In this document: piece after piece, positions 641 to 27,595 of the stretch | Position numbering within the stretch: position 1 is the first letter of the stretch | Layout: every line of letters begins with the position of its first letter | From: Bacteroidota bacterium | Lineage (GTDB): Bacteria; Bacteroidota; Bacteroidia; 2-12-FULL-35-15 | DNA length: 53,684 nt | Direction of reading: 5' to 3' | Assembly: GCA_040388455.1 (NCBI GenBank) | Contig: JAZKBX010000120.1 | Location: 10,982 to 64,665, forward strand | Position numbers and translations under genes: made by a program | The notes under the pieces: generated by a model | What the model was told of the DNA's origin: nothing | The model's input: only the letters and a program-made list of their open reading frames with translations | The model's database searches: none

Positions 641-682
641 TTGTTACAGAATCATTAATTACAAATTTGTTATTTATTTTTG
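641..682 (+). promoter_or_regulatory. Late promoter 1: TTGTTACA box + Bacteroidota -7 element TATTTTTG
   Basis: TTGTTACA 641-648, TATTTTTG 675-682 (offset 34). Same architecture recurs six times on this arm. Confidence 0.75.
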
Positions 683-712
683 AAGTACTTAAATTAAATT
701 TATTACTTCAAA

Positions 713-1054
713 ATGAATAAGCCAAACCTTTCAAAAGTAAAGGACAAGTCAGTCCTTGAATATATTTCAAGTCTTGAAGATCAGTTAAAAACTCCTTACG
801 CTGAAGCATTTATTTCATTAAAAAGAATGGTTGATAATGGAACCGATCAAATGAAAAATATAGTTTTTGATGTATTTACTCCTGAAGGAGAAACCAAGTT
901 TAAGCAGGCGGCAAAATTCACAGCTCAGTTGAAGGTGTGGTATTCTGAAATGGAATATTTTAAATCTAAAATGAGTCCAGAAGAAATTGTTGAAGTGAGT
1001 AAAGGTGTTGTTAAGGAGGATGGTGTAGAGCAATTTTTAAAGGAGAGGGGATAA
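713..1054 (+). CDS. Putative terminase small subunit
   Basis: Small helical protein 2 nt upstream of TerL; call is positional only. Confidence 0.5.
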   Translation: MNKPNLSKVKDKSVLEYISSLEDQLKTPYAEAFISLKRMVDNGTDQMKNIVFDVFTPEGETKFKQAAKFTAQLKVWYSEMEYFKSKMSPEEIVEVSKGVVKEDGVEQFLKERG

Positions 1055-1056
1055 AA

Positions 1057-3087
1057 ATGATTCAGAAGCCAAAAGATTTTGTTCGTGAACGTTTAATAGG
1101 AGATTACATTATAACTCTTCCTGAGTGCCCACCTGTCAATAAAATAGACAATTATAAACTTCCACAAAAGGATCAGAAATTTTGTAGAGCAGATGTTCCA
1201 AAAGATTTTAAGTCTTGGGCGCCAGAAAAACGAAAGGAATACATATCAAGGGAGTGGGATAGAAGGCTGAACGGGTATTGGTTCTACAATAACGGTAACA
1301 TAGAGTTTATGACCGGAATAAATTATTTTTATGTTTCGTGGTGGAGAATAAACACTGGGTATCCATTGTTTACAGATGCTGACAGAGATTTTTTCTATGT
1401 ATGGGATATGTGTGAGAAAGATGTATTGTGTGATGGACTTGTTTATATAACTCACCGTGGGGAGGGTAAAACTTACAAAGCGACCTGTATTCTTTATGAG
1501 CCTATTTCAAGAAGGAATAATGTAATTGCTACTATACAATCAAAAACAGAACCTGATGCAAGAAAAGTTTTCAATAAACTTGTTCAATCATGGAAGTATT
1601 TGCCTTCTTTCTTTAAGCCTATTGATACTGGAGTTAGTAGGCCAGCAAAGGTGTTGGAGTTTATGGAGCCATCTGTTAGAACTTCAAAAACACAAGAAAA
1701 AATAACATCTGATGTTTTAGATTCATTTCTAAGCTATCTGTCTTCTGGAGAGGTTGCTGGTGATGGGGACAATTATCACAGGATCCTTCAAGATGAAATT
1801 GGTAAAACGGTTGAAGTTAATGTTGACGACAGAATGAAGGTTATGCGTGAAACATTGAGGGCAGGAAGGGGTAAGTACGGTAGGGGTAAGATTTTAGCGA
1901 CCACTACCGTTGAGGAAATGGAGAAGAAGGGTGGTAAGAATTGTAAGTTGGTTTGGGATAAATCAAACCCAAAAAAGAGGGATGGTAACGGATATACGGT
2001 TAGCGGTCTTTATCGTTTATTTAAGCCTTCTGATTATGGGTATATTGAGATAATGAATGGCGAGTCTTTTATTGATGAATACGGGTATTCTTTAAGAGAA
2101 AAAGCGAAAACATTTTTTTTAAATAAAAGATCTGCCCTGAAAGGTAGTGACTTGAATTCCGAGAAAAGAAAGTTTCCTCTTGAAGAGAAAGATATTTGGG
2201 TATCTGACACGAAGCGTGCTGTATATGATACCCAAAGGGTTGAAGATCAGTTAGAGTATAACCAAAGCCTTGTTAATCAGCTGGTGAGAGGTAATTTCTA
2301 TTGGATTGGCGGTGTTCAGTATGGAACTGTTGGGTGGAACCCGGATGAGAATGGGAAGTGGTTATTGTCGTGGCTTCCTCCAAATGAGTTAAGAAATAAG
2401 ACTATTATTAATGCTGGTAAAAAGTCTCCAGGAAATGTAGACCTTAGTTGTGCTGGACTGGATCCTTATGATAATAACACAACTGCTGATGATAGAAAGT
2501 CTGATGCTGCAAGTTATGTTTTTAGAAAGTTTGATCCGTTGAATCCTTATGATACAGGAATATTTGTGTGCGAATACGTTAACCGGCCAAACAAGTCTGA
2601 GATTATGTTTGAAGATATGCTTATGCAATCAATATTTTATGGACACGAAATATTGATTGAAAGCAATAAAATTGGATGTATTAATTATTTCTTGTCAAAA
2701 GGGTATGAAAATTATTTAATGCGTAGGCCAGAAGAAACTCAGACTGCCAGTTCCAGAAAAATGACAGAGGATTGGGGTATCCCTATGTCCGGGTCCGAGT
2801 CAAGACAGAGTTTAGTATATGCCACTGAAAGCTATATAATTAACCGGGTGGGGATGATTCAGGAAGATGGTCAGCAGCCTTATATGGGAAAGTGTTATTT
2901 TAATAAACTTCTTCAGACTTGGTTAGATTATGATGTAGATGATGATTGGACAAAATATGATAGTATGGTAGGCGCTGGGCTTGCTTTACTTGGGGCAAGG
3001 AAGTATATTCCAAAGAAAAAAATCATTAAGAACTTGAATTTATTTCCTCAATTCAGGTTAAATGGTGATGTAAGTGAGCGTATATAG
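1057..3087 (+). CDS. terL: Terminase large subunit
   Basis: Walker A-like HRGEGKT, Walker B ILQDEIGK, RNase H-like nuclease motifs GLDPYD, LIESN and YDSMVG. Lies upstream of the portal. Confidence 0.92.
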   Translation: MIQKPKDFVRERLIGDYIITLPECPPVNKIDNYKLPQKDQKFCRADVPKDFKSWAPEKRKEYISREWDRRLNGYWFYNNGNIEFMTGINYFYVSWWRINTGYPLFTDADRDFFYVWDMCEKDVLCDGLVYITHRGEGKTYKATCILYEPISRRNNVIATIQSKTEPDARKVFNKLVQSWKYLPSFFKPIDTGVSRPAKVLEFMEPSVRTSKTQEKITSDVLDSFLSYLSSGEVAGDGDNYHRILQDEIGKTVEVNVDDRMKVMRETLRAGRGKYGRGKILATTTVEEMEKKGGKNCKLVWDKSNPKKRDGNGYTVSGLYRLFKPSDYGYIEIMNGESFIDEYGYSLREKAKTFFLNKRSALKGSDLNSEKRKFPLEEKDIWVSDTKRAVYDTQRVEDQLEYNQSLVNQLVRGNFYWIGGVQYGTVGWNPDENGKWLLSWLPPNELRNKTIINAGKKSPGNVDLSCAGLDPYDNNTTADDRKSDAASYVFRKFDPLNPYDTGIFVCEYVNRPNKSEIMFEDMLMQSIFYGHEILIESNKIGCINYFLSKGYENYLMRRPEETQTASSRKMTEDWGIPMSGSESRQSLVYATESYIINRVGMIQEDGQQPYMGKCYFNKLLQTWLDYDVDDDWTKYDSMVGAGLALLGARKYIPKKKIIKNLNLFPQFRLNGDVSERI

Positions 3088-3092
3088 AATTA

Positions 3093-3134
3093 TTGTTACA
3101 AAATTAATTTTAGATTTTATATTTAATAAGTTTG
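3093..3134 (+). promoter_or_regulatory. Late promoter 2 (portal)
   Basis: TTGTTACA 3093-3100, TAAGTTTG 3127-3134 (offset 34). Confidence 0.75.
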
Positions 3135-3153: not shown

Positions 3154-5634
3154 ATGACAGTTGACCTTAAAGCTAAATATAATGCCTTTCCCAGCGACTT
3201 TGAGTCATTAGAGGAAAAGAAAACTGAAAGATTTGGTTTAGAGTACGTAAAGGCAATGTATTCGTTGCATGCGTTAAACTACCCCATTAACAACCCAACA
3301 ATGCTCCAGTATTTCATGAACAGGGAGTGGGCTGAGGGTATTTACAGTACAAATATTTATAAACCAAGAATGGGTATGGAGGGTGATACGTCCTTCCTTA
3401 ACCTTGATTATTCAGCTATTTGCAGGATACCGACTATTGTAGATAATATGGTTGGTAAGCTTACAAATAAGCCATGGCGATTCCAATGCAATCCTACCGA
3501 TACAGTATCCAGGTCAAAATTTGATGATGCCCGTGATGAAATGCGTGCAGATATGTTCTTGAAACAGCATTCTGATGAGGTTGAAAAAAGAACAGGTATT
3601 CCATTGATTCCAAAAGGTAAATTCGTTCCAGAAGACGAGGATGAAAAAGAGCTTCATCTTCAGATGAATTTTAAGTTGGATGAGGCTGAGGCTATGGAGC
3701 TTGCGTTGAAGTGGGTTTTCGATAATAATAATTTTGAAAAAGAGTCAGTTCCTAAAATTTATCGCGATTTAATTGTAGATAAAAAAACTGCTATATGGCG
3801 ATATTATGATGAGAATAAAAACATTAGAGTAAAACGATGGGATCACATAAAATTAATTCACCCGAATAGTGTAGAAGAGGATTTTAAAGATATCCCTTAT
3901 GTTGGTTTGCTGCAAACTTATACTATAGGAGCGCTTGCTAAAATGAATGCAGGACTTACTGATGAGCAGCTATATACAATAGCTAAGTGTCATGCAGGAA
4001 AAAATAATAATTTACCGTGGAATAGTGATTGGTATTTGAATTATCAAGCATATTCTGGTAGATACGGTGAAATAGCTTATCAGCAGTTTCAAAACTTCAA
4101 TATTGATTTGGTTAACTTTTACTTTTTAACTCCAGTTAATACTGTAAAGGCTGTTAAAACTAATGTATCCGGAAGGGTTCGTGTTGAAGATAAAAAAGGA
4201 GATTATGTTGCTGACACAAAAGAAAAAACTTTTGGTGAGCAGACTGAAGATGTTGATGTTGTAAGAAGAAAAAAACTTGTTCGATTTGAAGGGTTTTGGG
4301 TTCCGGGTACAGATATTATTTGGGATTACAAGATGTCTGAAAATGTTGAAAGAGATCCAACTCCTGGTGGTTATAGTCCTGAGACAGAGTTGCCAGTGAA
4401 GATAATCATGCCTAACATGATTGGTAATAAGAACAAGTCGGATGTTCAGCGGATGATTCCTATTGAAAAACAGGTAATGTTAGCCTGGTTGAAGCTTCAA
4501 CAGTTTCTTATAGAAGCTATGCCTCCAGGTATGGCTATAAACCAGAATGCATTACTTGAAGTTGTAAATGGCGCTGGTGAGGGTAAAGCTTTGCCTACTG
4601 ATTGGACTAAGCTTTATAAGCAAACCGGTAATATTATTTTTACAGATAAAGGTCCAGATGGATTACCAATAAACATTCCATTTAAAGAGTTGAACGGAGG
4701 TATAGGTCCTGCATTTATGGATTTCATGCGCGTTATGGATTACGGCATAAACAAAATGAATGAGGTAGTTGGATATAATACTGCTGTAGATGCTAGTTCT
4801 CCTAAAACGGATGTGTTGGTTGGCACACAGGAAATGGCTCAGCAGGCTACTTATGATTGTATGCGTCCTAAGTATATGGCTGCAACAAACCTTATAGAAG
4901 GTACAGGTAAGCGTGTAGGTTTGATGATACAGGATTGTTTGAGGTTAGGTAATGATTCGTTTAGGTTAGCTCTGGCTGAGGCTATTGGTCAGTCTAATGT
5001 TGATGTTCTTACTATGGGGCGGGATGTGCCTTTTTCATCTGCGGCTATCAGTGTGGAAATTCAGCCAGATGATTTTGAAATGCAAGCTATTAATAGGCAC
5101 ATTGAATTGGGTATTGCAAATAAAACTCTTACATCTTCCGATGCGCTTCGTGTTCGTCAGCAGCTGAAGACTAATGTTAAATTAGCAGGTCAGCTAATGG
5201 TTTTCCTTGAAAAGAAAAACATTAAAGAGGCTATTAAATTGCAGTCAGCAGCTATACAGGAAAATGCTGTAGCCCAACAACAATCTGCTCAGGTTGCAAG
5301 TCAAATGAAGCAGCAGGAACTTCAGTTGGAGAATCAAGCTAAAAAGGAGCTAATGCAGTTTGAGTATCAGTTAAAAGGAGGGTTAAGCGAACAAGAGCAC
5401 TTACAAAATATGCAGGAAATCGCGGGTAAAAACTCCGGGCTTATTCAGCAGGCACAAGTTAATGCTGGAAGAGCTATTCAAGTTCAGGAGATCAGCACTA
5501 CTGGAAAATTGGAAGAAGCTCATATTGCAAAAGAAGGTGCTATTGAGAAATCACATATTGATCATGAAGGTAAGTTGAAGCATGAAGCGTTTAAGGCTGC
5601 TGTTACACCTAAGAAGGAGCCTGCAAAAAAATAA
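3154..5634 (+). CDS. Portal protein
   Basis: 826 aa after TerL, 'FLNLDYS...IPTIVDNMVG' N-terminal motif, Gln-rich coiled-coil C-terminal barrel as in P22/crAss-type portals. Confidence 0.88.
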   Translation: MTVDLKAKYNAFPSDFESLEEKKTERFGLEYVKAMYSLHALNYPINNPTMLQYFMNREWAEGIYSTNIYKPRMGMEGDTSFLNLDYSAICRIPTIVDNMVGKLTNKPWRFQCNPTDTVSRSKFDDARDEMRADMFLKQHSDEVEKRTGIPLIPKGKFVPEDEDEKELHLQMNFKLDEAEAMELALKWVFDNNNFEKESVPKIYRDLIVDKKTAIWRYYDENKNIRVKRWDHIKLIHPNSVEEDFKDIPYVGLLQTYTIGALAKMNAGLTDEQLYTIAKCHAGKNNNLPWNSDWYLNYQAYSGRYGEIAYQQFQNFNIDLVNFYFLTPVNTVKAVKTNVSGRVRVEDKKGDYVADTKEKTFGEQTEDVDVVRRKKLVRFEGFWVPGTDIIWDYKMSENVERDPTPGGYSPETELPVKIIMPNMIGNKNKSDVQRMIPIEKQVMLAWLKLQQFLIEAMPPGMAINQNALLEVVNGAGEGKALPTDWTKLYKQTGNIIFTDKGPDGLPINIPFKELNGGIGPAFMDFMRVMDYGINKMNEVVGYNTAVDASSPKTDVLVGTQEMAQQATYDCMRPKYMAATNLIEGTGKRVGLMIQDCLRLGNDSFRLALAEAIGQSNVDVLTMGRDVPFSSAAISVEIQPDDFEMQAINRHIELGIANKTLTSSDALRVRQQLKTNVKLAGQLMVFLEKKNIKEAIKLQSAAIQENAVAQQQSAQVASQMKQQELQLENQAKKELMQFEYQLKGGLSEQEHLQNMQEIAGKNSGLIQQAQVNAGRAIQVQEISTTGKLEEAHIAKEGAIEKSHIDHEGKLKHEAFKAAVTPKKEPAKK

Positions 5635-5644: not shown

Positions 5645-5686
5645 TTGTTACAATAATTACATGAATGTAATGAGAAATTATTTTTG
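5645..5686 (+). promoter_or_regulatory. Late promoter 3 (scaffold-capsid operon)
   Basis: TTGTTACA 5645-5652, TATTTTTG 5679-5686 (offset 34). Confidence 0.75.
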
Positions 5687-6894: not shown

Positions 6895-8343
6895 ATGTAT
6901 TCATTTTCAACACCATCAACAGTTCAGGTAGCGACACAATCCAATTGGGTTGCATCTAACTCTATTTACGATCAGCGTAAACCGTATATTGATGCCCGCG
7001 AAGCGAAAGTTTGGGGTTCTCAGGATATTTCCGGTTTATTCGATGAGTTAAAAGGAGGTAAAAATTATGTAGAGGCTAATTTTGGTCGTCACATGGAAGA
7101 GGATCGTTTACACGCGATCATTCACGCAACTGGTACTACTCAGGCGGCTTTAGGAGCTGTTGTGTATACTGTAGTGTCAGGTGATACAATCACTTCATGG
7201 CCTTCCGTAGAATTACCGTATATCGCTACAGGTACTACAGGTTTTCCATCATTAGGTGGTGCAACTCTTGTTCCTGTTCGTGTTCACGAAGTGTTAGTGT
7301 TCCCAGGCAACGTAAGAGGTAAAGTAACTGCAGTGTCAGGTGCTACTTTTACTGTAACTCCAACCGGTTCAGTGGATTTACCAACTACAATTTCTACAGA
7401 CGAAATCTGGAGTTTAGGTATCTCGATTCCAGAAGGTTTCAAGGAGCAAATTACTTCAAACAACTGGAGAGAGCATGTTGTGTATTGGAATTCTGAGATC
7501 ATGCAAGATGCTCACGAAACAACTGGTACTGCAATGGTTCAAGCAACTTGGTTATCATTTACTGCTCCTGATGGACAGACAATGTTTAACTGGTGGTTTA
7601 AAGGCCAAATGGGTGCTCGTAAACAATTCGTTAACTACCGTGAGTTCTCATTGGTATTTGGTGAGTCTGTAACGAACTCTACAACTTTACCGGCAAATTA
7701 TTCTGCACAGTATCAACAAACAAATGGTTTGCTTCAGTTCGCGGCATCATTCGGTAACACACCGGTGTATGACCTTACTACAGGCATGACCTTGGATGAT
7801 TTCCAAAATATAATCATTGATACTTTAAGCAAAAATGCTGCATCAACTGAAAATTGCTTGTACACAGCGATCTCTGTAGATAAAATGTTAAGCTCATTTA
7901 TCCGCACTGAAATGCAAAATGGCGGTATCATTTATGATGCCCTTGGTGGATCAAAAGATGCGTATGTGAAACTTGACCTAAGAGACTTTGAAGTTTTAGG
8001 TTATACTTTCCACAGAAAAGTGTATTCAGTATTTAACGATCCAACTACGGCTGGAAACGTAAGTTCTGTGTATAAAAATTTCGCATTCATGGTGCCAATG
8101 GAAAGCAACATGTACGTATGTGCAGAGAAAAAAGAAAAAGTAGAATGTCCTCCAATGAGAGTTAATTACTTGAAACAAGGCGGCTTCAACCGTGAGTGGA
8201 TCGAGACGTTAACAGGTGGTGCTATCGGAAGCAATGCATATACTAACAATGGCGACTACGCTAAGGTTGATATGCGCTCTGAGTGCGCATTTGAAGGGTT
8301 TGGAGCCAACAGGTTCATGACCTTAACTGGAGAGAACCTATAG
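6895..8343 (+). CDS. Major capsid protein
   Basis: 482 aa after scaffold, biased codon usage (ttc/aac/atc), followed by a hairpin. C-terminal 'D...RSECAFEGFGANRF' resembles crAss-like/Bacteroidota podophage MCPs. Confidence 0.85.
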   Translation: MYSFSTPSTVQVATQSNWVASNSIYDQRKPYIDAREAKVWGSQDISGLFDELKGGKNYVEANFGRHMEEDRLHAIIHATGTTQAALGAVVYTVVSGDTITSWPSVELPYIATGTTGFPSLGGATLVPVRVHEVLVFPGNVRGKVTAVSGATFTVTPTGSVDLPTTISTDEIWSLGISIPEGFKEQITSNNWREHVVYWNSEIMQDAHETTGTAMVQATWLSFTAPDGQTMFNWWFKGQMGARKQFVNYREFSLVFGESVTNSTTLPANYSAQYQQTNGLLQFAASFGNTPVYDLTTGMTLDDFQNIIIDTLSKNAASTENCLYTAISVDKMLSSFIRTEMQNGGIIYDALGGSKDAYVKLDLRDFEVLGYTFHRKVYSVFNDPTTAGNVSSVYKNFAFMVPMESNMYVCAEKKEKVECPPMRVNYLKQGGFNREWIETLTGGAIGSNAYTNNGDYAKVDMRSECAFEGFGANRFMTLTGENL

Positions 8344-9640: not shown

Positions 9641-9681
9641 AAAAACGGGCCTTGGATGATAATTTCAAGGCCCGTTTTTTT
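9641..9681 (+). terminator. Rho-independent terminator
   Basis: AAAAACGGGCCTTG-loop-CAAGGCCCGTTTTTTT. Confidence 0.9.
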
Positions 9682-9721
9682 GTTACATATTTTAAATATT
9701 AAAATGCGAGTGGTATTTTTG
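9680..9721 (+). promoter_or_regulatory. Late promoter 4
   Basis: TTGTTACA 9680-9687, TATTTTTG 9714-9721 (offset 34), directly after the terminator U-tract. Confidence 0.75.
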
Positions 9722-9740: not shown

Positions 9741-11207
9741 ATGGCTACTACAGTTTCTTTCATCACTTCATTTAATATAACAGGAGCAACAAAGCTAATA
9801 ACTTTTTTAGATACGAGTGGTCTACCTGGCCAGGGTGTTCCTTTGGCTGACGTTGTTGGTAATTTTACTATAACAGCTCCAAGTGGTACAACTATTTATA
9901 ATAATACGGCTATTACTAATGCTGATTGTGATATAGATTTTATAGCAAGCCTTGTTAGTCAGCAATCAATAGTTCTTCCTGTAGATGCTTATGGTCTTGT
10001 TGAGGCAGGGAATTACACTATTGTTTATCGTGTGTGGGATTCTAATCTAAGTGTATATTATACAAAAACAAATATAGTAAATTACCAACACGCTTCTCCG
10101 GAGGTGTGTATACGTCAAAGGATTGATTGTATTACTCCTTTGTTTAGTTCTGTAGATTATACAAATTATTCTGTAAATAGCATATCTCCTACAATTAGTG
10201 GTACTCATACTTTAGATTACCCTGTAGGATCAGATGGTGAAGGCTCGCCTACTGTAGTTAATTTTACTGCATCATCTTCAGTTATAGCTGTATCTACATT
10301 TTATCAAGGAACACAAACAACGGAGATTGAGGCAGATTTAACTTATACTGTAGTTTCTGGAGTTAATGGATTTATAATCCTTGATTCTGTTTCTGGATCG
10401 AAAGAAATTAAGGTAGATTGTGATTATATATGTTCTATATTATGCTGTGTCCAAGCTTATGACACAATAAAAGAAGGGTACAGATTAACTAATCAAGTTC
10501 TTTTCACTAAATACGATAATATTTTCCAAGAGGTTATGTCTTATATCGGCCTTATGCAATTAGCTATAAGCTGTGGTCTTGGTAATGAAGTGTGTACTTA
10601 TTTAGAAAGAATAAAAACTTTAACAAATTGTACTAATGCCTGTAATTGTGGGCCAGACACCCCTTCAAGGGTGATAGGCTTAGGGTATCTAATAGGCCCT
10701 GCTGGTCCTGCTGGAGAGCAAGGTATTCAGGGGGCTGCTGGAAATAACGGAAATTATTTAACGATAACATCAGAAGATCCAGGAGAAAACTGTACAACAG
10801 GTGGTCAAAAGGTTATTCTGTATAATGGGGTGACAAGCGATGTAATAAGCACTAGCTATATTTGTAATGGAGCTGCAGGATCAAATGGAACTAACGGAAC
10901 AAACGGTACGAATGCGTTTAAGTTTACAAAACAATTTGTCACAGAAGAAATTGAACAAAATTTGGATATATCCGAGGTTGTTCTTACTGCATGTGAAGAA
11001 GTTCCTGCAGGATGCCTGGCAGATGGGACAACTGAAAATCCTTTTGTTGATTTACATATCCAAATTTGGTTATTAGGTGTCGGTGGATCATGGTCACTTC
11101 TTATTAATGGAACTGACTATACTCTTACTATAAGTAATTCAACAGGATTGATAAGGGCGGTAACTGGTAATAATCAAGGTACTTATAGGGTAGTTGTCTT
11201 AGCTTAA
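9741..11207 (+). CDS. Virion fibre/structural protein with Cys-rich and collagen-like segments
   Basis: Beta-rich N-terminus, CSILCC...CTNACNC cluster, GPAGPAGEQGIQG collagen triplets, 'PGENCTTGG...YICNG' module. Confidence 0.65.
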   Translation: MATTVSFITSFNITGATKLITFLDTSGLPGQGVPLADVVGNFTITAPSGTTIYNNTAITNADCDIDFIASLVSQQSIVLPVDAYGLVEAGNYTIVYRVWDSNLSVYYTKTNIVNYQHASPEVCIRQRIDCITPLFSSVDYTNYSVNSISPTISGTHTLDYPVGSDGEGSPTVVNFTASSSVIAVSTFYQGTQTTEIEADLTYTVVSGVNGFIILDSVSGSKEIKVDCDYICSILCCVQAYDTIKEGYRLTNQVLFTKYDNIFQEVMSYIGLMQLAISCGLGNEVCTYLERIKTLTNCTNACNCGPDTPSRVIGLGYLIGPAGPAGEQGIQGAAGNNGNYLTITSEDPGENCTTGGQKVILYNGVTSDVISTSYICNGAAGSNGTNGTNGTNAFKFTKQFVTEEIEQNLDISEVVLTACEEVPAGCLADGTTENPFVDLHIQIWLLGVGGSWSLLINGTDYTLTISNSTGLIRAVTGNNQGTYRVVVLA

Positions 11208-11230
11208 AACTATTTTAATATTTAATAATT

Positions 11231-11770: not shown

Positions 11771-11774
11771 ATAA

Positions 11775-12964: not shown

Positions 12965-12967
12965 AAA

Positions 12968-17300: not shown

Positions 17301-18221
17301 GGAGTTCCTATACAGCAAACTCAGTTTAATGGGACTCAGGGGGAGCAATTTGTTGGTCAATCAACTGAAGTTTTACCGCGTGTACCAAAATATTATGAAG
17401 GAGAGTATGGTATAGGTAAGAATCCTGAGAGTTTTGCTGTTTATGGTAATGCGAAGTATTTTATTGACGTTAATCGTGGCGCTGTATTAAGGCTTTCGAA
17501 CGATGGTATAACTAATATTTCGAAGACTTATAATATGCATAACTATTTTACAGATAAGTGTGCGGCAGTTTTGGCTTTTAATGGAAGAGTTAATGTGTAT
17601 GGGGTTTATGATGTTAAGTTTGGGGAGTATATTATTTCCTTTCAAAATATATCGGATGGTCGAGGCTCTTTTGCCGGTGAAACGTTGGCATTTAATGAAG
17701 ACGAAAACTCCTGGAGTTCGTTTTTCTCATATTTGCCAGATTTTTTATGTTCTAATGGACTTAATATAATTAGTTTTAAATCGGGTGCTCTTTATACTCA
17801 CAATACTAATGCTGTATATGCTAATTACTATGGTGTGCAGTATAAATCCAAGTTGTGGTTTTATTGCAATGCGGCTCCAAGTAATGTAAAGGTTTATGAG
17901 GCTATGTCACTAGAGGCTTTGGATGCTTGGGCGGCTACAATAGAAACCCCTATAAGTGATGAAAATCCTGCAGGTCAAACTACCGGGTTACTGGATACTA
18001 ATTTTGATTTAATAGAGGGAGTTTGGTACTCTGAGATATTGAAAAACGATAACACTCCCAATATTGTTCCTTCTCCGGTTATATTGCCAAACGCCAGGTT
18101 TGAAGGTGATGTTATGAGGGGTGTATATGCTTTAGTTAAATTGGAATATCAGGGAACTGTATATAGTAAAATATTTGCTGCAAATGTTTTATTTATTCCA
18201 AGCGACCGAAGTAATAAATAA
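14331..18221 (+). CDS. Tail stabilisation / nozzle (muzzle) protein, P22 gp10-like
   Basis: 1296 aa beta-rich; 'LLYWTDG..NEPRKINIE', 'YGIGKNPESFA', 'YFIDVNRGAVLRLS.DG' motifs of crAss-like tail stabilisation proteins. Confidence 0.82.
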   Translation: MLQKVLFNGPMDSDSSPEAFKDGMGRFRSDMRIFSSENGESESAEIPRGNSVVTFSLPTGTNTVIGAAEDKKTKKVYYFVHNTSFNHLILEYNSVTGAIAKVFQDSINILGGQTNILNFKTTHLITGIDIVEIDSLNHLLYWTDGYISTSDPNVYNEPRKINIEKGKYFMAGNYTLGYKTPFDPEILFRIKQPADCGPTYAWSGIPAPVFTFSADSVTPLLFTSSDPGGIPKTIPYDQDILDPGNEFDISTFTWTVGTTGGYYIKSTFLINNEGPPADNTCLAYFSVNGVQVYPGLNFSLSSATPVSKTLEVFNQSLTAGDTVKVEFICSTVAIGEADVVILGTLFTSERAISGVGINYLFKLYPVFKTQLVYDDNDVSSWSPWSKYFFPAVVKDVSTGNDIVAQDDTITVTVDTGISIVTKIRVAVKMLGQILNPATNLLQNLEFSLVAELDKANLNIADNSTYSFEFLNDGNYTPLYINESIKLFDSVPLASQSEALIIDGRIVDGLITEGQDPVDIDMIMNLSYPEIADIPGFGSTITPASFLKSGGIYSYGIIYSDHGGRLGTTNIQRGKSTVLLPNGKFGTTLYVPFLTESGYGAPHYTPNTDMSYVPQVNMEIYNRPPSWATHYQVVRSKNKAISKYFQFTAQTIDYVNVLGFSVTPSAATDVNFYINNITGIYLSDNGASSLVYDFTPGDRVRFIANVSGAGPAYNEIGALFSFNDTEIISYNSGTGIIHIKKTSDVPLTLAPGVIFEIYTPAKSVINDNEFMYEIGECFPLDEDIHGNLIHTFSTSNQLINSYTSSATAGTNTTIQLPAGHGLVINDKVKLVGTGYSVYGIVTTANATNAIVSTAGFTVTGTINTGVGTVYKAATGTLTSGDCFRIFQNMPWVVSSVVYRLYMYVENMNISNLWTSNAWDYARPNKVDDAAKRITRQSTVIWSESFIPETFINGLSTVYDTNFQTYEAQYGGIYFLYNEKLWLHIFQELKVSGVPIQQTQFNGTQGEQFVGQSTEVLPRVPKYYEGEYGIGKNPESFAVYGNAKYFIDVNRGAVLRLSNDGITNISKTYNMHNYFTDKCAAVLAFNGRVNVYGVYDVKFGEYIISFQNISDGRGSFAGETLAFNEDENSWSSFFSYLPDFLCSNGLNIISFKSGALYTHNTNAVYANYYGVQYKSKLWFYCNAAPSNVKVYEAMSLEALDAWAATIETPISDENPAGQTTGLLDTNFDLIEGVWYSEILKNDNTPNIVPSPVILPNARFEGDVMRGVYALVKLEYQGTVYSKIFAANVLFIPSDRSNK

Positions 18222-18279: not shown

Positions 18280-18312
18280 AAACGCTCCAATACTTGGGGC
18301 GTTTATTTTTTT
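18280..18312 (+). terminator. Rho-independent terminator
   Basis: AAACGCTCCAA-tac-TTGGGGCGTTT then ATTTTTTT. Confidence 0.8.
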
Positions 18313-18353
18313 GTTACTAAACTGTAATTGCTTTGAAATAATTTTTATATTTG
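18311..18353 (+). promoter_or_regulatory. Late promoter 5 (ejection-protein operon), probably leaderless
   Basis: TTGTTACT 18311-18318, TATATTTG 18346-18353 (offset 35); ATG at 18358 follows after only 4 intervening nt. Confidence 0.7.
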
Positions 18354-18357
18354 AAAC

Positions 18358-18660
18358 ATGCAAAGTTTAATAATATTTATATTATCTACTGCCGGTTTAA
18401 CTTGGATACTATGTGATTCATCTTTGTTTAAGCCTTTTCGCGAACTAATTTCAAAGAAATATCTGTTCAACAAAAATGTAATAATTTCATTTTTGGATGG
18501 TATACTGAATTGTCATGGATGCTGTGGTTTCTGGGCTGGTCTTGTTTGTTATCCTTTTTTGCATGAAATTCAGCCTGTGTGGGTACTTTTTGGGTTCTCT
18601 GGTAGTTTTAGTGCTTTGATACTTATTGCGTTGTATAATATGATAAAACGTGTAAAATGA
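18358..18660 (+). CDS. Small membrane protein, DUF1360-like
   Basis: Hydrophobic segments, 'S.LFKPFR' and 'LNCHGCCGFWAG' motif. Confidence 0.6.
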   Translation: MQSLIIFILSTAGLTWILCDSSLFKPFRELISKKYLFNKNVIISFLDGILNCHGCCGFWAGLVCYPFLHEIQPVWVLFGFSGSFSALILIALYNMIKRVK

Positions 18661-19172
18661 CTGAAGGAATCGAAAAAAGAGAAGAAAGATTGCTGCCAGA
18701 TACTAAGAGTATAAGGAAAAGCATAATGGAATATGAGGAACAAATAAAGAGCCAGGAAGGTGCTTTTATTGGAGATTCGCCTATATGTCCTTTGAAACAT
18801 ACGTTCAGTGAAGGCATTTATGTAAGGGAGATTCGCATTCCAGCTGGAACTTATATCGTTGGTAAGCTTCATAAACACGCTCATCCAAATTTTTTATTGA
18901 GTGGGGTTGTTGATGTGGTAACGGAACAAGGCACAACTACTTTAGAAGGGCCTATGTCAATGATTTCTCCTGCAGGAACTAAGCGTGCTTTGTATGTAAA
19001 GCAGGATGTGGTGTGGGTTACAATACACTCAAATCCAACAAATACACAAGATTTGAAAGAACTTGAATCTATTGTTATTGCAGATTCGTATGAGGAGTAT
19101 GAAAAATTTATTGAGAGTAAAAATGAAAATAAATTTATTTCGTTTATAAAAAAACTTTTAAATTGGAAATAG
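18657..19172 (+). CDS. Cupin-fold phage protein preceding ejection genes
   Basis: 'HTFSEGIYVREIRIPAG...KLHKHAH...SPAGTKR...TIHSNP' His-rich cupin-like motif. Confidence 0.65.
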   Translation: MTEGIEKREERLLPDTKSIRKSIMEYEEQIKSQEGAFIGDSPICPLKHTFSEGIYVREIRIPAGTYIVGKLHKHAHPNFLLSGVVDVVTEQGTTTLEGPMSMISPAGTKRALYVKQDVVWVTIHSNPTNTQDLKELESIVIADSYEEYEKFIESKNENKFISFIKKLLNWK

Positions 19173-19681
19173 CTACTGATATATTGCCTAATTTGTCACA
19201 GTCCGATATGAAAAGATTTTGGAGGAATGTTGATGTGCTGTCTGACGAGAATAAGTGTTGGAACTGGAACGGAGGTAAGAGAAGGAGAGGTTATGGTAGG
19301 TTTTATGTTCAGGTAGAAAAGAATAAAGATAAATCATTTGTTGCATCAAGGATTTCGTATTTTATAGAGAATAAAGTTGACCCTGTTGGGCTTACTGTTT
19401 TGCATAAGTGCGATAACCCTTCTTGTGTTAATCCAAATCATTTATTTTTAGGAACACCTTCGGATAATTCAAAAGATATGATTGAAAAGGGTAGGGGGAA
19501 GATGCAGTTTAAGGATGGTGAGGATCATCCTGGAGCAAAAATAACTGAAGATATTGTTCGTGATATACGGAGTGGTAAATATAATGGATTAACACAGATT
19601 GAAATTGGTAAAATTTTTGGCGTTGTCGCGTCTGTTATAAGTAATATTAAAAATTTTAAATGCTGGAAACATGTTAATTAA
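19163..19681 (+). mobile_element. Free-standing HNH homing endonuclease
   Basis: CWNWNG...GYGRF...ASRISY...VLHKCDNPSCVNPNHLFLGT..DN..DM..KGR, C-terminal HTH; TTG start uncertain. Confidence 0.9.
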
Positions 19682-19702
19682 CAATAAAAAAGGAGGTATG
19701 TT

Positions 19703-20386
19703 TTGACGTGGGTCGCTGCAGGCATAGCATCTGGGGCTGCAACGATGGCCGGGGTGCAATACGTAAAAGGTAAACGGGATCAGAAAAAGGCTGAAAAAAA
19801 TCGGCCTAAGTATGAGATACCGGAAGAAGCCTATCAAAATCTTAATCAGGCTCAGCAGTCTGCTTTGCAGGGTTTGCCAGAGGCTCAAAAGCAGCAATAT
19901 CTAAACAATTTGCAGCAGAGTTCGGCTTATGCTTTACAACAAACTACTTCACGAAGAGGCGGTTTGACTGGTGTCGCTGCTATAAATCAGCAACAGAATC
20001 AAGGGCTACAAAATTTAGCTGCTAGTGATGCTCAGGCTCGAATGAATAATCAGCAACAATTGTATAACTTCCGTAATCAAATGGCTGATTATAAAGGTCA
20101 AGCGTACCAGGTTAATAAACTGAATCCTTATTACGAAGGTATAGCTCAAAAGCAAGCCAGGGATGCGGCTTTGTTTCAAAATCTGAATAACGCTGCTGGT
20201 ATGGGGATGTCAGGCATGGGTGGTGGAGGTAAGTCTCAGCAACAACAAATGCCTACACAAAATCAGTACATAGATAATTCTAAGTACAATAATATGGGTC
20301 AAGGTAATTACAATGGTTACGATCCAAATTACAATCCGCAAGGTATTTATTCAGGCGGCAATTACGATATTTCAAATATAGGATAA
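19703..20386 (+). CDS. Ejection/pilot protein (small, Gln-rich, N-terminal hydrophobic Gly/Ala segment)
   Basis: MTWVAAGIASGAA N-terminus, Q/N/A-rich coiled coil; first of three ejection-type genes; TTG start. Confidence 0.65.
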   Translation: MTWVAAGIASGAATMAGVQYVKGKRDQKKAEKNRPKYEIPEEAYQNLNQAQQSALQGLPEAQKQQYLNNLQQSSAYALQQTTSRRGGLTGVAAINQQQNQGLQNLAASDAQARMNNQQQLYNFRNQMADYKGQAYQVNKLNPYYEGIAQKQARDAALFQNLNNAAGMGMSGMGGGGKSQQQQMPTQNQYIDNSKYNNMGQGNYNGYDPNYNPQGIYSGGNYDISNIG

Positions 20387-20387
20387 T

Positions 20388-21791
20388 ATGTATAAGGTAA
20401 ATCCTTCGGATGCAATGACCGAGCTTTATGGCCTGAATAAAGCTGATGCACAGATATTTGATAATAGGCTTGCTCAACAGACTATTGCTAAAAAACAGCA
20501 ACAAGATGAGCTTGCTAGGCGCGAAAAAGAGGCGAAACTGTCTGGTTTAATGTCAGATGTTTCGAAGATTGGTAAAGGCGAAATACGTCCTGCTGATCTT
20601 GATTACTTTGCAGGTGAGCAAAAATCGTTATATGATGATGTTAAAAAAGCATTTTCAGAATCTCGTGGTGGTACTCTTCCTATTGAGAAGCAAGTTGACT
20701 TCGAAAACCGTATTGCTGATATCCAAAGAAAGGCTGCAATATCTGGATCTCGCCATAAGCAAAATATGTCAGAGTATCAGAAAGCTGTTATGCATCCAAA
20801 CAAATATACTAGGGCAGATGAGATTGAAAGGATACAGGCAGACAGCTTCGATAAGGCTAATGCTGGTAAATTTAACGAACCTCTCACTACTTTGACCGAG
20901 AACTTTGATTACGGTCAATATGTAAATGATAAATTGGCTCCTTGGGCTATGGAACAAGCTAAACGTAGAGATAATCGTGGGGTTTATGCAAATACGCCTG
21001 AAGAAAGAAATCAAATGATCATTGATGATTTAGCTGATCCTGTTAAAATGCAACAAGCTGAATATGATTTTTCTTCTGCTAGTGATAAGTTGGGGACAAA
21101 TAATCCTATTGATTATTATGTGAAAAAATATGCTGATAAGTTAAAGGTTGATGTTAAGCCAAAACTTTCAGAGTGGGAGTCAGGTGGTGGAGGCTCTTCA
21201 GAAAAAGAGCCAAAAGTTTCTGGAGTGTATTCTCCTAATGATGATAATACTGGAAATTTTCAGTTTGAATATACAAATACAACAGACAATCCTTACATAT
21301 TAATTCAGGATCCAAAAAATCCAGGAAGCCAGTTAGGGGTGAAGCCGTTGTCTGTTTATATTGATAAGAAAACTCCTGGTAATACTAAAATGAAGGCAGC
21401 TGTTCAGTTGACTGCTGAACAAAAGAAGGATAATGATGAAGCTGTAAAAAATTCTGAATCAAAGCCGTATAGAGAGGTTATTGAACTTGGTTATACTGAT
21501 GTTGACAATATCATGAAAAACAAGTTTAAGGTTCCTAATGTGTTTTCTATAGCTCACGGAAATACTCCAAAAGGGGTTGATGTTAAGTATAATAATTCGC
21601 CAAACTCTAAAAAAGGTACGACAGTAGGTCCGAGTATGACTGATGCGGAGAGAGCTAAAGCTAAATATAGTGCCGTCCAAACATTTGATGAATATAAAAA
21701 TGCTTACATGTCCGCTAAAAATAAATCTAAATTAACTCAGGAAGATATAGATTACCTTAACAAGAAGTGGGCTGAAAAAACTAAAAAATAA
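20388..21791 (+). CDS. Internal virion / ejection protein (medium)
   Basis: 467 aa, helical and charged, between the pilot and giant ejection genes. Confidence 0.55.
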   Translation: MYKVNPSDAMTELYGLNKADAQIFDNRLAQQTIAKKQQQDELARREKEAKLSGLMSDVSKIGKGEIRPADLDYFAGEQKSLYDDVKKAFSESRGGTLPIEKQVDFENRIADIQRKAAISGSRHKQNMSEYQKAVMHPNKYTRADEIERIQADSFDKANAGKFNEPLTTLTENFDYGQYVNDKLAPWAMEQAKRRDNRGVYANTPEERNQMIIDDLADPVKMQQAEYDFSSASDKLGTNNPIDYYVKKYADKLKVDVKPKLSEWESGGGGSSEKEPKVSGVYSPNDDNTGNFQFEYTNTTDNPYILIQDPKNPGSQLGVKPLSVYIDKKTPGNTKMKAAVQLTAEQKKDNDEAVKNSESKPYREVIELGYTDVDNIMKNKFKVPNVFSIAHGNTPKGVDVKYNNSPNSKKGTTVGPSMTDAERAKAKYSAVQTFDEYKNAYMSAKNKSKLTQEDIDYLNKKWAEKTKK

Positions 21792-24700
21792 TGGAAAACA
21801 AAGTTACGATATCTGAAGATGAATTTGATGATGCACCAAAGGGTAGTGTAAGTATATCTGATAACGAATTTGATGATGCACCAGGAAACGAGGTGTCAAA
21901 AAAAAAATCCATCAGAATCATCATTGAGTTCGGATGGTGCTACATCGCCATCAACGGAAAGCGCCTCGGCCTACGCTCCCCAATCTATTACAGATCCGAA
22001 AAGTAAAATAAAGGAAGCTTTATCTGTTAAAGTTAATGAAGATTTTAGTAAAAATCCTATATTTCAGGATTCGAACCCTAATGCAAAAAGAAATAAAGAA
22101 ATTTATATCAACCATTTAGCATCCAAGGGGTACGATAAAAAACAGCTTCAAAATATTTCAGAAGGCGTAGACGACAGAACGAAGTTTATGCCTGATTTTG
22201 AGCGTCCGTATGGATCTCTTCAGCCTATTGTTGACTTTTCTGTTAATATGGTTACTGGTGCAGCTCAGGGGGTTAATGCCGGCCTTGAAAAGTTTAATCA
22301 AGGTATTGGTACTGTAGTAAATGCTTTAGGTGGTCAGACTGGAGGGTTTACTGACAAGGCTGAAGAACTTACAAAGGGTGGTCTTGAATCGGCTACCGGT
22401 TTGGGGGAAACGGCTTTAGCTGGTGCAAGTGTTGCTGTTCCGGAAATGGCTGCATTTGTGGCAAGTACAAGTGCTATAAAAGAAGCGGCTAGTGCTCTAC
22501 CTGATCATGAAGCAAAATTTGTAAATGATGTTGTTGACTTTCCTTTTGCTGCAGTATCAAAAACTGCACAAGCGCTTGGATTTAATCCAGAGAAACATGA
22601 GAATTGGGCTATGCTTATGGAGGTAGCCGATTTTGCTGCAATAGCAAAAGGTATCCAGGTATACGGAAAAAAAACAAATCCTATTCAATCAGTAAAAGAC
22701 CTTAATACTCTTTCAGATAAAGCTGTTAAGGGTGAAATGTCTCCTGAAGAAATGATTAAATATCAAGAGTTTGCTGATAAAACAAAGGATATTACATTAG
22801 AAGAAATACGTGAAGTAGCTGAAGAAAAAGGCTCATCCGAACTTGTTAAAAAGATTGATGAGAATATTGAATATGTTAAAAAAGAAAGGGAGAAACGTGG
22901 CCTTCCAACTGAAACTTACGTAGATGATCTTCCTGAATCTGTATTAAACACTATTGATCTTATTGATAAAGGCGCTCCTGTTGATGTGTCTGTTTTAGAG
23001 GAGTCAAGTAAAGCTTTGTATGATAAATACAAATTTCTGAAAGAAGAAAAGGAGAATCCTAATAGGATACAAACTATTGAGGAAATAAATAATATACAAG
23101 AAAAAATTGGTGAGGATATATCTTATATTGAAGATTATAAGAATAGAATGATCGAGGGAGATATTCCTTTGAATGAATTAAGTAAAAAGGTTGAGGACCT
23201 TAGTACAGAGATGAATAATGAAAATGTTTCTCCTGAAATGAAAGCTAAGTTTCAGGAAGAGATACAGGCTGCCGAATCTGAAATTAATAACATAAATGCT
23301 ATTAAGGATCAGAAAATATCTGATATTGCTAATTCTGAAATTGCGGATGCCAATAATGAGGTAATGCTTGAAATTAAGAAAGAGGACCTTAAAAACGCTA
23401 CAACTGAAACCGGAAAAGATTTAATTCAGAAGGAGATAGATGCACTAGAGCCGTTAGTTAATAATTCAAAAACAAAACCGGAGCGAAAGATTTCAAAAAA
23501 AACGGATTACACAAAAGGTAAGCGTGCTGAAGATGTTGCTGCTGAACAGGGTGTTGAATTTTCTTCTCCGGAACATGCTCAGCAATTTATTCTTGAAAAT
23601 TCAGAGAACCCTGCTGAAATTGCTACTGAGTATATGAACATGGAAGCTGATGGTGAAATAAGTTATAAATCGCAACAGCTGGAGGATTACGGTATTAAAA
23701 TGACTGATGAAGAGTTTAATCAGAATTTCGATAAGAACAAAAAGAATTTTACGCTTGCCAAAAAATATATTGATAATAAACGTAAAGTTCCTTTGGATGT
23801 TCAGCTTATGGAGCTGTCTGAACGTGCTGGTATTGAAATAACTGAACAGGATTTGTTTGATCATATTGATAAAATGGAATTGGACCGTGCTTCCGGAAAA
23901 GAATCAAGTTCAAAAACAAAATTTAAAAGTAAATTTTACGAGTTAACCGGTAAGGAATTGACTCCTGCTTTGGCACGTGAAATTATTAAGGATGAAATAA
24001 ACCAAAACATTGAAAATTATGAGCAATACATCACAAGAGAAAACCTCACTGCAGAAGCAGAAGAACAACTCTACTATGAAGGACTTAGAGATGGAACAAT
24101 TCCAACCTTCGACTCAGAGCGATATGGCAATGTACCGCGCGATAAAAAGGTTTCAAAAGGAGCAAAAAAAATAGAGCAAGCTGTAGTAGAAGCGGAAAAG
24201 CCTATTTCTAAAAAGGTAAATCCAGTTGAAGATAAGTTGCCGGATCTTGGGAATAATGATGCTACGCCTAAAACTCAGAAGTTAGCTGAACGAATGGAGC
24301 TTTCCAGCGTGGTTAACAAAGAAATTAAGCAAGGGTTGTTGGATAAAGGTACTGAGTATATTCCTTTAAACATTGATATTTCAAAAGCTGATGCTAAGCA
24401 GTATGTAGAAGCTATGGATAAGGCCGGTGAACTGGATAAGGCTATAGCGAATGTTACAAATATGCTTAAAAGTGATCCTAAAAATCTTAATGAAAGATTT
24501 AATCGTGGACTTATAAGTGCTGAGTTGTTTGAGAAGTTGGCAGATAAATCAAATAACGCTAAAACGGACGCTCAGAAAACATTATATCGTGACCTGGCTG
24601 TAGATTTGGCAAAGTTTGCCGCTGACAGCTTTACTTCTGCTGGTAAAGAATTAAATGCTGCAAAAGTTTGGAAAAGAATGATGGAGCGTACACCAGATGG

Positions 24701-27551
24701 TGTTGTTCAAAGTATTCGTGAATCTTATGCTGAACAAAATAAGCCTGTGCTCGACTCGTTGAAAGGTGATATAAAAGATGCAAAAAAAGTTATTGACGAA
24801 TTTCTTGAATCAAAAGATTTTAAGGATCTTGTTGGTAAAAAGGTTAAGGAGGAGTTAGTTAAGCTCGGTAAAAAATCTGAAGGTAAATCAATTCCAAAAG
24901 ATGCCAATATATTTAACAGTAAGGCTGTTCGTGAATCGCGTAAAACTGAATTGATGGCCAAATGGAAGGCTGCTAAGGGTAGCGCATCATCATCTATTGT
25001 TGGTCTAAATAAAGAACAGATTGAGGTTGCAGGTGAAATGGCTTTGATACATATTGTTGAGGGGGTTGTGAAGGCTGCTGATTTAGCTGTAAAGTTGAGA
25101 AGTTCTTTAGGTTTAACTCCTGAGCAGTTTAAAGATTTGTGGGAGAATGTTGATGTTGCTGGTAAAAAGATTAAGGAATATGCTGAAGAAAAAGCCAAGG
25201 ATAAGTTTGATGAAAAAACAATTCAAAAAGCTATTGATGTATTTTCCGGAAAGGAAATTGATAAATTGGAAGAAAAAGCTTATCGGGATGCTGTTAAGCA
25301 ACAACTGTCTGATCCAAAAAGCGAACTTTATAAAAAGTTGACAGAAAAGCTTTCTAATGTTAAGCCTGAAAACAGGAAAAAAATTCTTGGTGATATATTA
25401 GCTGAAGTTGAAAAGGTTGGTGGTTTGTCTGATAAAAGATTTCAGGAGATTTATGGTGAAGCGTTTGGATTAAAAACTCTTTCCGGTGCTGAAGAGGTTA
25501 AGATACGTGCCCTTATTGATACGATAAATAAAGCGGAGAAGACTGGCGCTGAGTTATCAAAAACTATACTTGGTGGCGGGACAAAGGAACAAATTAAGCA
25601 GAAGCGTTCTGAGTGGGAGAAGGCTGTATTTGAGGCTCAAAAAGCGAACAATGAAGTTTCTCAGTATTTTAAGGCAGACAAACGAATAGGTAATACGATT
25701 TCATCTTTCATTCAGGCCGGACTGTTAACATCAATGTCGTTACTGAAAAACGTATATTCTAATACATTGATGATACCTACCAGGTCTACCCGTAGAGGTA
25801 TTGCAAGTGCAGCTGATTATTTAATATCAAAAGCTACCAATACTCCAAGAACAATAGATGCTCTAGCGTATTGGAAGGGTGCCATGCAGGGTGTTCGTCC
25901 GGGAGTTGAGGTTGCTTTTAAGGAGCTTTTAGGTGGTGTTAATCCTGAGCAAATGACTGAACGGGATTATAACCAAACATTAGAGCCATTAAAGGCGATG
26001 TATAGCTTTGTTAACGGGTTGAAGGGCAAAGAGAAGATTGCTGCGTATGATCAGGTTAATAATTTCATGGAAGGCACATTTGGCTTATCAGCTGAATTAA
26101 TGTTTAGATTGCTTAATCTTGGTGACAAACCGAATCGGGTTGCTGCTGAATTTGGTGCTGCATTTGAAATTGGGAAATTAAAGGGGTTAAAAGGTAAGGA
26201 ACTTGATAATTTTGTTTTATTCCCAGATGAAATAAGCGCTAAGGAGATTAAGCTGCAGGGTGAGCGTGCTGTATTTCAGCAAACGGAAGGTTTAACGGGA
26301 GAGGTGAGTAAAGGTTTAAAGAAACTAGAGGATGTTATATCTAATAAAATTTTTCCTCAGATTCCGCTGGTTGGGGATGTCTTGAAGGTTCTCTGGAAGA
26401 CACAAATGCCTTATAAGAAAACTCCATTAAATATTTTGGGTGAAACATTTAAGTTGGTTCTTCCAGAGGTTAGTGTTGCTGAAGGTTTGTATCATGCGTT
26501 AAAAACTGGTGACAGAAAAAAGGCTCTTGAAAGTTTTTCTAACGCTGCTATAGGTTTTGGAATACGTGAAGGTGTAAAGGCGCTTATGGCTAATAACCTG
26601 GTTACTGGTAGTGGGGATTATCGTGATAAAGAAGGTAATATGATTCAACAGCAAAACGTTGCTCCAAGCTCCATTAATATAAGTGGTATGCAACGTATGT
26701 TCTCTGGTGGAACTCCAGCTACAAAAGATGGAGATACTTGGATTAATTATTCAAATATGGGTCCTATAGGAATTTTCTTAGGGGTGCATTCTCAATTAAA
26801 AGACGTTCCAGATGAAGCTAGAAGTTATTTGATGGATTTAGCTACTGTTGTTCCTGCTACTGGTCAATACGCTTTAGAGCAATCGTTTTTATTGGGAATG
26901 AATAATTTCTTGACAGCCATGGGTGATAAAGAGGGTCGTAGCAGAAGGAAATGGGCTTTAAATACACTTGGAACTGTAGGTTCTGCTTTTTATCCTAACT
27001 CTGTTGCAACTGTTAGTAAAGCAGCTGATGAAAATGTTCGTGAGTTAAAAGATGAAAAATTTTCTACTGAACTTGTAAATACATTTAAGTCAAAAATGTT
27101 TATGGGTGATGGTCTTCCGTCAAAGGTTAATTTGTGGGGAGAGAAAATAACCGGTGCACCTGAAGGTAGAAGTAAAATGTTATGGTATCTGATGGATGTT
27201 ACTAAGTTTAAAAATGTTCCTACGGAATCTTATAACTATAAGGTGTTTCAGTTATGGAATAATGTAGAGGATACTAAATTAAAAAACGGTGTATTGCCAA
27301 ATGTTCCTCAGCAAAAAATAACAGTTAAAGGTGAGTCTGTTAAATTAACTCCTCAGCAGTATGAAAAATATCAGATATACACTGGTAAAAACCGGGCGGC
27401 ACTCGTTAGAGATTATGCTGAATCTCCTAATTGGGAAAAAGATAGTGATGAAAAGAAGGTTGAACGGTTAAAGGGTTTGTATTCTGATGGCCTTAGTAAC
27501 GCTAAAAGACAATTATTTAAGGAGTATCCTGAACTAAAAAAGAAGAAGTAA
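21791..27551 (+). CDS. Giant internal virion/ejection protein, ~1919 aa, read across a +1 frame change at A10 (21898-21907)
   Basis: The ATG at 21791 is coupled to the upstream stop (TAATG). Its 71-aa frame overlaps the 1893-aa frame exactly at the A10 run. C-terminus resembles large podophage internal virion proteins. Confidence 0.7.
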
Positions 27552-27553
27552 AT

Positions 27554-27595
27554 TTGTTACATAACTTATTTAAAAAATAGTAAAAATTATATTTG
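27554..27595 (+). promoter_or_regulatory. Late promoter 6 (tail fibre operon)
   Basis: TTGTTACA 27554-27561, TATATTTG 27588-27595 (offset 34). Confidence 0.75.

Follow-up and report, generated by a model that had tools for sequence, protein, structure and literature searches.

Mor and C of phage Mu (for C, see PMC4461284), Ogr of P2 and Delta of P4 are activators of late genes, and the middle promoters of T4 (MotA box and AsiA) have their phage box centred near -30. Escherichia coli promoters do not work in Bacteroidota, and crAss-like phages carry their own polymerase. Outside of the latter group, transcription control in Bacteroidota phages is, to our knowledge, almost uncharted. In Gram-positive phages, an activator of the RinA/ArpU/LtrC superfamily is needed for the packaging/morphogenesis operon and acts upstream of terS, according to two articles (PMC3152322; PMC3753634). 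Housekeeping promoters of Bacteroidota consist of a TTTG -33 element and a TAnnTTTG -7 element (PMC6847099; PMC2483708), with 19-21 nucleotides (nt) between them (PMC6847099). Here, we describe a class of putative late promoters in a stretch of 53,684 nt (the window), which corresponds to positions 10982-64665 of the phage contig C120 (76,156 bp) in a Bacteroidota assembly (GCA_040388455.1). These sites join the host-type -7 element to an asymmetric 8-mer box at a nearly invariant distance. No paper on this motif or on the late promoters of Flavobacteriia or Bacteroidia phages was found in the open PubMed Central subset and bioRxiv, to which the literature search was confined.

The combination of a host core element with a phage box is textbook logic. 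As in the late promoters of Mu and P2/P4, a host-type downstream element is kept, a good upstream hexamer is absent and a phage site stands at a fixed distance; likewise, several such promoters head morphogenetic operons. The box of C120 differs in being asymmetric instead of a dyad, and the host sigma factor is of the Bacteroidota type (-7/-33). With the T4 middle promoters, the late sites share an asymmetric phage box in place of the upstream element, rigid spacing and a retained host downstream element; their box, however, is centred near -42. In RinA-type phages, a single late promoter before terS is usual, whereas the C120 phage carries seven dispersed ones, six of which lie in the window. 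The first-pass annotation of the window had located these six, and a pattern scan recovered all of them at the same positions, on the + strand:

641..682, + strand: putative late promoter 1, box TTGTTACA, 26-nt spacer, -7 element TATTTTTG; precedes an open reading frame (ORF) of 113 amino acids (aa) and the large terminase gene (713-3087)
3093..3134, + strand: putative late promoter 2, TTGTTACA-N26-TAAGTTTG; precedes the portal gene (3154-5634)
5645..5686, + strand: putative late promoter 3, TTGTTACA-N26-TATTTTTG; precedes the genes for a 377-aa, a 482-aa (virion structural) and a 397-aa protein
9680..9721, + strand: putative late promoter 4, TTGTTACA-N26-TATTTTTG; precedes the block 9741-18221, from a 488-aa fibre-like gene to a 1296-aa virion protein
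18311..18353, + strand: putative late promoter 5, TTGTTACT-N27-TATATTTG, the sole site with a 27-nt spacer; precedes the block 18358-27551, including a 1892-aa protein
27554..27595, + strand: putative late promoter 6, TTGTTACA-N26-TATATTTG; precedes fibre-like, collagen-repeat and peptidase genes (27623-33548)

The box start and the TAnnTTTG start are 34 nt apart in five of the six sites and 35 nt apart in promoter 5, as had been described. A comparison with shuffled sequence, which the first-pass annotation had proposed, gave six matches to TTGTTAC-N27/28-TAnnTTTG in the window at an expectation of 0.02, and none of 100 dinucleotide shuffles reached six. TTGTTAC alone is not enriched in the window (14 copies found versus 10.2 expected, with 9 of 100 shuffles reaching 14), and eight of its 14 copies are located elsewhere, mostly inside genes. 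What stands out is consequently that the 7-mer is paired with the -7 element at a fixed distance and is placed between genes. Across the assembly, the composite occurs eight times in forward and never in reverse orientation, versus one and one for a backwards-read control. Seven of the eight matches are on C120, all on the + strand; the one not yet listed is an identical site at C120:9958-9999, which lies 1,023 nt before the window begins and precedes a 505-aa virion structural gene. The remaining match, on contig C303, is the only one in the other 4.63 Mb, for which our own estimate from the observed motif frequencies predicts about one by chance. At 6,041 host TAnnTTTG sites, TTGTTAC is found once at the 27-nt spacer and never at 28 nt, and when two mismatches were allowed, the extra sites fell only inside genes.

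Each of the seven C120 sites precedes a packaging or virion gene block (terminase, portal, structural, fibre-like), which agrees with the operon heads assigned earlier. The late region has 12 + strand gaps that measure 40 nt or more, of which 7 contain a site, among them all four that reach 100 nt, and TAnnTTTG is located 12-44 nt before the next ATG at all seven sites. A terminator hairpin precedes four of the seven, whose blocks consequently need an initiation site of their own; the other three begin 2-10 nt past the upstream stop codon (5 nt past that of the terminase for promoter 2). Within the window, three of the six sites stand right after a strong hairpin and T tract, as the first reading of the sequence had it:

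595..628, + strand: terminator-like hairpin and T tract, directly upstream of promoter 1
9641..9679, + strand: terminator-like hairpin and T tract, directly upstream of promoter 4
18280..18304, + strand: terminator-like hairpin and T tract, directly upstream of promoter 5

The -7 element of the late sites has the same form as that of the Bacteroidota housekeeping promoter, to which these sites add the conserved 8-mer ending 26 nt upstream. In the first 150 host contigs, TAnnTTTG stands before long ORFs more often than control patterns do (419 of 2624 versus 299 of 3059 and 259 of 2430). None of the six window sites exhibits TTTG or TTG 17-23 nt upstream of the TA, and the two canonical promoters of the - arm that had been set against them were confirmed as the only two - strand matches to TTTG-N19-TACATTTG (49333-49303 and 41726-41696):

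49303..49333, - strand: canonical host-type promoter of the - arm, TTTG-N19-TACATTTG, for contrast
41696..41726, - strand: canonical host-type promoter of the - arm, TTTG-N19-TACATTTG, for contrast

An extra TTTG-N19-TACATTTG match on the + strand (43199-43229) is absent from the earlier description. The proposal made there, an activator bound near -45 that replaces the -33 contact, held in part: a distinct, phage-specific promoter class with the box at about -46 to -39 fits the data, and replacement of the -33 element is unsupported. Absence of the -33 TTTG is not diagnostic because this element is weak in Flavobacterium johnsoniae anyway, where it is called “much less evident” than its -7 counterpart and is surpassed by AT-rich motifs near -18 and -28 (PMC6847099). 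The box position follows from the numbering of the -7 element in the same article (T-12, A-11, T-8, T-7, T-6, G-5; PMC6847099), by which transcription from promoter 1 is predicted to start near 687. The leaders implied for the late sites, of about 0-32 nt, compare with an average of 33 nt given there for F. johnsoniae (PMC6847099). In promoter 5 (window 18346-18360), no more than 12 nt separate the T of the -7 element from the ATG at 18358, so that the block's opening gene would be leaderless unless translation begins at a later start codon.

Conservation in relatives, on which the earlier proposal had been made to depend, was found in metagenomic phage fragments recovered by terminase-, portal- and small-protein-based searches. 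Orthologous genes in four records are preceded by the box and the -7 element, again 26 nt apart:

L091: terminase 92% identical to that of C120; four sites TTGTTACA-N26-TAnnTTTG, preceding the orthologues of the 505-aa gene, the small ORF and terminase, the portal gene and the 377-aa gene
G068 (L009/L092): terminase 85% identical; four forward and no reverse sites, three with TTGCTACC and one with TTGTTACA, 26-nt spacer
G069 (L293/L303): portal 73%, GroEL 60% and terminase 34% identical; five forward and no reverse sites, boxes TTGTTACA or ATGTTACA
L304: near-identical to G069; three sites, 26-nt spacer

Together with C120, these records hold 23 + strand sites, 22 of which have a 26-nt spacer and the other a 27-nt spacer. 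WTGYTACM is the consensus of the box, and positions 2, 3, 5, 6 and 7 are invariant in the 19 tabulated sites. An ungapped comparison of four orthologous sites, with C120 as the reference, gave the following identities:

L091 versus C120: box 32/32, -7 element 30/32, spacer 88/104, upstream 20 nt 32/80
L092 versus C120: box 26/32, -7 element 26/32, spacer 39/104, upstream 20 nt 36/80

The L092 spacers, at 38% identity, are thus at about the level of unrelated AT-rich sequence, and their length is unchanged. That box identity and distance were held while the spacer was randomised argues for selection of the whole as one protein-DNA assembly. The six box differences of L092 amount to the same two substitutions at three promoters (TTGTTACA to TTGCTACC), parallel changes of the kind that co-evolution with a reader would produce. 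A further relative, L099 (terminase 62% identical, same gene order), has promoter-like sites at the orthologous gaps with a different box, TTTTCCTC, at the same position: TTTTCCT(C/T) ends 27 nt before TACATTTG at five sites and at none on the other strand. Three box variants, TTGTTACA, TTGCTACC and TTTTCCTC, accordingly occupy the same position within one phage lineage.

In about 2 Mb of distant relatives (1.07 and 1.05 Mb of loci), the TTGNTAC composite gave only one + and one - stray match; otherwise, TTGNTAC at the late spacing was found in those loci only in L009/L092 and L091. A fixed-offset 6-mer screen of loci of at least 12 kb returned three promoters sharing a box only in L009/L092, L091 and L099. 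The exact pattern TTGTTACA-N26-TAnnTTTG is present in at least 119 IMG/VR stretches, with one match each among the matches listed.

Several late -7 elements read TAAGTTTG (window 3127-3134; L091:12072; L092:4935; L293:9615). The G at the second variable position of TAnnTTTG is reported to be virtually absent in F. johnsoniae (PMC6847099). The terminase of G069 (L293:10748-12988, 746 aa) is 34% identical to that of C120 next to a portal that is 73% identical, which is the pattern of an exchanged packaging gene (mosaicism) with the promoter boxes kept.

The best explanation for these findings, and one that we consider fairly probable, is the use of the host polymerase together with a phage-specified factor at about -42. 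The late sites would then form a phage-specific promoter class for virion and packaging genes, in which TAnnTTTG would be recognised as the -7 element by the host RNA polymerase with the primary Bacteroidota sigma factor. The asymmetric box WTGYTACM would be bound by a trans-acting factor that is probably encoded by the phage; the end of the box, exactly 26 nt upstream of the -7 element, would allow this factor to touch the polymerase and switch the promoters on. The box is located one helical turn upstream of the expected -33 element, and the region from about -46 to -39 is the classical position of class II activators, which contact RNA polymerase.

Several observations weigh against this explanation. 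Among about 75 ORFs compared with Pfam or PHROGs, no annotated transcription factor was found, with the exceptions of an XRE-type ORF and a ParB-like protein. L092 retains one TTGTTACA beside its three TTGCTACC boxes, which a simple specificity switch of one reader fails to explain. The site at C120:9958, alone among the seven, carries TTTG 19 nt upstream of the -7 element. As the lack of a -33 element is not unusual in Flavobacteria, the late promoters could also work without help (PMC6847099). Start sites, timing and factor dependence are all deduced from the sequence, and the term “late” is taken from gene function alone; a search for RNA runs returned none, the sole run found being a DNA run that may be the source sample. 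Finally, the assignment of C120 to its host rests on binning and on a match in GC content (35.4% for C120 and 35.5% for the whole assembly of 4.7 Mb and 382 contigs, a binned metagenome genome).

An explanation that needs no phage factor regards the box as an UP-like or displaced -33-like cis element, which the host RNA polymerase would read directly, through the alpha C-terminal domain or sigma region 4, to give strong constitutive promoters. T runs before the box and a spacer of 86% A+T after it, versus 68.5% for intergenic DNA overall, are in line with such an element, as are the AT-rich motifs near -18 and -28 that stand in for a clear -33 in F. johnsoniae (PMC6847099) and the lack of an activator gene in the ORF and Pfam scans. 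A general enhancer would, however, be expected at strong host promoters, and the composite is at about chance level in 4.63 Mb of host contigs; the box is not used by the - arm promoters of the phage itself; and its concerted change or its replacement in place among relatives fits a changeable reader better than a conserved polymerase. For these three reasons a changeable, phage-borne reader is favoured, and a constitutive cis element is regarded as rather unlikely. The asymmetric, single 8-mer and the rigid spacing (26 nt in 22 of 23 sites) would also suit a divergent sigma-like or sigma-appropriating phage protein, such as T4 gp55 and AsiA/MotA, that re-targets the polymerase with the box as its upstream recognition element, and most phage ORFs are without a family match. 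A six-frame Pfam search yet found neither sigma-70 region 2/4 nor MotA_activ on the phage: 17 Sigma70_r2 and 28 Sigma70_r4_2 matches in the assembly include none on C120, and MotA_activ has no match in the assembly at all. In addition, the -7 element is an ordinary host TAnnTTTG, and the 26-nt gap exceeds the host -33/-7 span of 19-21 nt (PMC6847099). A protein of this kind is considered quite unlikely.

Lower still in probability, and very unlikely in our view, is a single TGTTAC-binding switch protein that would activate from about -42 at the late promoters and repress from nearer the -7 element at “middle” promoters of the + arm. Phage phi29 p4 is a position-dependent switch protein of this kind. 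The idea draws on ATTACAAAAATGTTAT, which precedes TACATTTG by about 19 nt both in C120 (C120:2373 and C120:5164) and in L091, on a TGTTAC in L293 that precedes the -7 element by 17 nt in front of the gene encoding a conserved 95-aa protein, and on a palindrome, TGTTACA-TT-TGTAACA, over the -7 element at six promoters of L099. However, the middle motif of C120 and L091 has a T in place of the C that all 19 tabulated late boxes share, the spacings differ between genomes, and no protein has been assigned to the role. The reading that we prefer, a host polymerase helped by a phage-specified factor, can be taken further: a protein family without a recognisable DNA-binding or sigma domain might read the 8-mer at about -42 and hand the unusual Bacteroidota sigma-A holoenzyme to the late promoters, with box and reader as exchangeable modules. 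This extension is doubtful, if conceivable; if true, non-crAss Bacteroidota phages would have their first described mechanism of transcription takeover, and Bacteroidota a source of orthogonal promoter/activator pairs. The promoter class itself, clean, conserved and phage-specific, provides a direct handle for finding the regulator and a way into the study of how Bacteroidota phages control transcription, and the motif allows the annotation of late genes in related metagenomic phages. Should an activator exist, it would also offer tightly switchable expression parts for Bacteroidota.

Scans for the protein that might read the box gave few leads. Besides the ParB-like protein, the ORF scan returned chaperonins, replication and recombination genes, a C5 methylase and a serine recombinase, with no member of the RinA/ArpU/LtrC superfamily among the ORFs scanned (Pfam or PHROGs). 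The XRE-type ORF has 97 aa (C120:69699-69992, outside the window) and is the HTH_3 match on C120, at 23.3 bits. With regard to Mu, the six-frame search found no Mor match on C120, its single match in the assembly being a weak one on contig C362. An Ogr-like small activator of the zinc-finger type was not seen on the phage, the sole coding-strand ORF with CxxC...CxxC having 247 aa, and no AsiA-like protein was identified on C120. A virion polymerase of the crAss type was considered and rejected, as no DFDxD motif is present in the 1892-aa or the 1296-aa protein. Near the box, no consistent second half-site was found. Two ORFs had been put forward as activators, and neither can be tied to the box:

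37697..37978, - strand: P0005, candidate activator of 93 aa; four-helix model with weak matches to XRE-type helix-turn-helix folds
52013..52216, - strand: P0006, second candidate, of 67 aa; no family match

P0005 has eight homologues of unnamed function, none of them in IMG/VR. Its model has a predicted local distance difference test (pLDDT) value of 72, and the best Foldseek E-value is 0.66, with no match reaching 0.001; the best PDB matches are almost all to XRE, Cro or HipB-type domains. From this model, P0005 is probably a helix-turn-helix protein. Helix-turn-helix dimers of its type usually read dyads, not a lone asymmetric 8-mer. Two other small proteins are conserved. P0001, the 95-aa protein encoded after the second “middle” promoter, has 31 homologues and a confident, small, beta-rich model without a match in the PDB or the Atlas. 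P0004 (143 aa), whose gene lies between those for GroES and GroEL, accompanies the TGYTAC box in four of four box-bearing genomes, which may reflect plain relatedness; its helical model gave no structural leads.

The “middle” motif belongs to a second promoter-like module, which heads two early blocks of the + arm (C120:2361-2415 and C120:5150-5205, locus L089; outside the window). It consists of (T)ATTACAAAAATGTTATTTTAT about 17-19 nt before TACATTTG and is conserved in L091 (2025-2070 and about 7490-7545), where a perfect-dyad variant, ATTACAAAAATGTAAT, precedes an extra cassette. Related dyads, TTACA-N4-TGTWA, are found inside two late spacers (window 659 and 5657), that of promoter 3 containing the palindrome ATTACA-N4-TGTAAT. 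In L099, near-identical promoter modules of about 60 nt (L099:5046-18564) are composed of TTTTCCTCTTTTGTAA, N17 and ATGTTACATTTGTAACATAA(A/T)AGTTACAC; the 16-bp palindrome that overlaps the -7 element may be an operator superimposed on each + arm promoter.

The first 55 bases of C120 are identical to the last 55, which indicates a circular molecule of about 76.1 kb, and its gene set, as predicted, is that of a tailed phage. Matches to Pfam and PHROGs comprise the large terminase, the portal and virion structural proteins, fibre-like proteins with collagen repeats and a peptidase. Further genes code for a primase-helicase, an SNF2-type helicase, RusA, an RNA ligase and the C5 methylase, and the ParB-like protein and the serine recombinase are encoded as well. 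By simple ORF calls with ATG starts only, the + arm extends from 2424 to 44529 of C120, with packaging and virion genes from 9.9 kb onward, and the - arm holds replication and many small genes. Megablast searches with 20 kb of C120 gave no match among cultured phage records, and the relatives that tblastn with the terminase and portal identified in phage records are all less than 60% identical and belong to Flavobacterium, Cellulophaga and Tenacibaculum phages. The terminase has no match in 67 genomes of the same order, and against genome contigs it found only relatives of 34% and 30% identity.

Directly upstream of the first late promoter (C120:5583-9481, L089), genes for GroEL (531 aa), GroES (97 aa) and a second Cpn10-domain protein (265 aa) are located, an arrangement that is kept in L091, L092, L293 and L099. 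The block before them (C120:2424-5160), which comprises a 60-aa gene, a 369-aa gene, a PD-(D/E)XK nuclease and a 132-aa gene, adjoins a serine recombinase/invertase homologue (region C120:993-5160, L089). Relative to P0001, GroEL and the late genes, the same block is flipped in L293 (2440-6042) and L099 (2288-4277), which represents either an evolutionary inversion or an invertible segment. Outside the window, at C120:69351-70447 (L090:4686-5782), large gaps and facing TAnnTTTG elements surround the 97-aa XRE-type ORF, which adjoins a GIY-YIG gene. This arrangement looks like a switch region of the cI/Cro type and is, along with the serine recombinase, a hint of a possibly temperate lifestyle.

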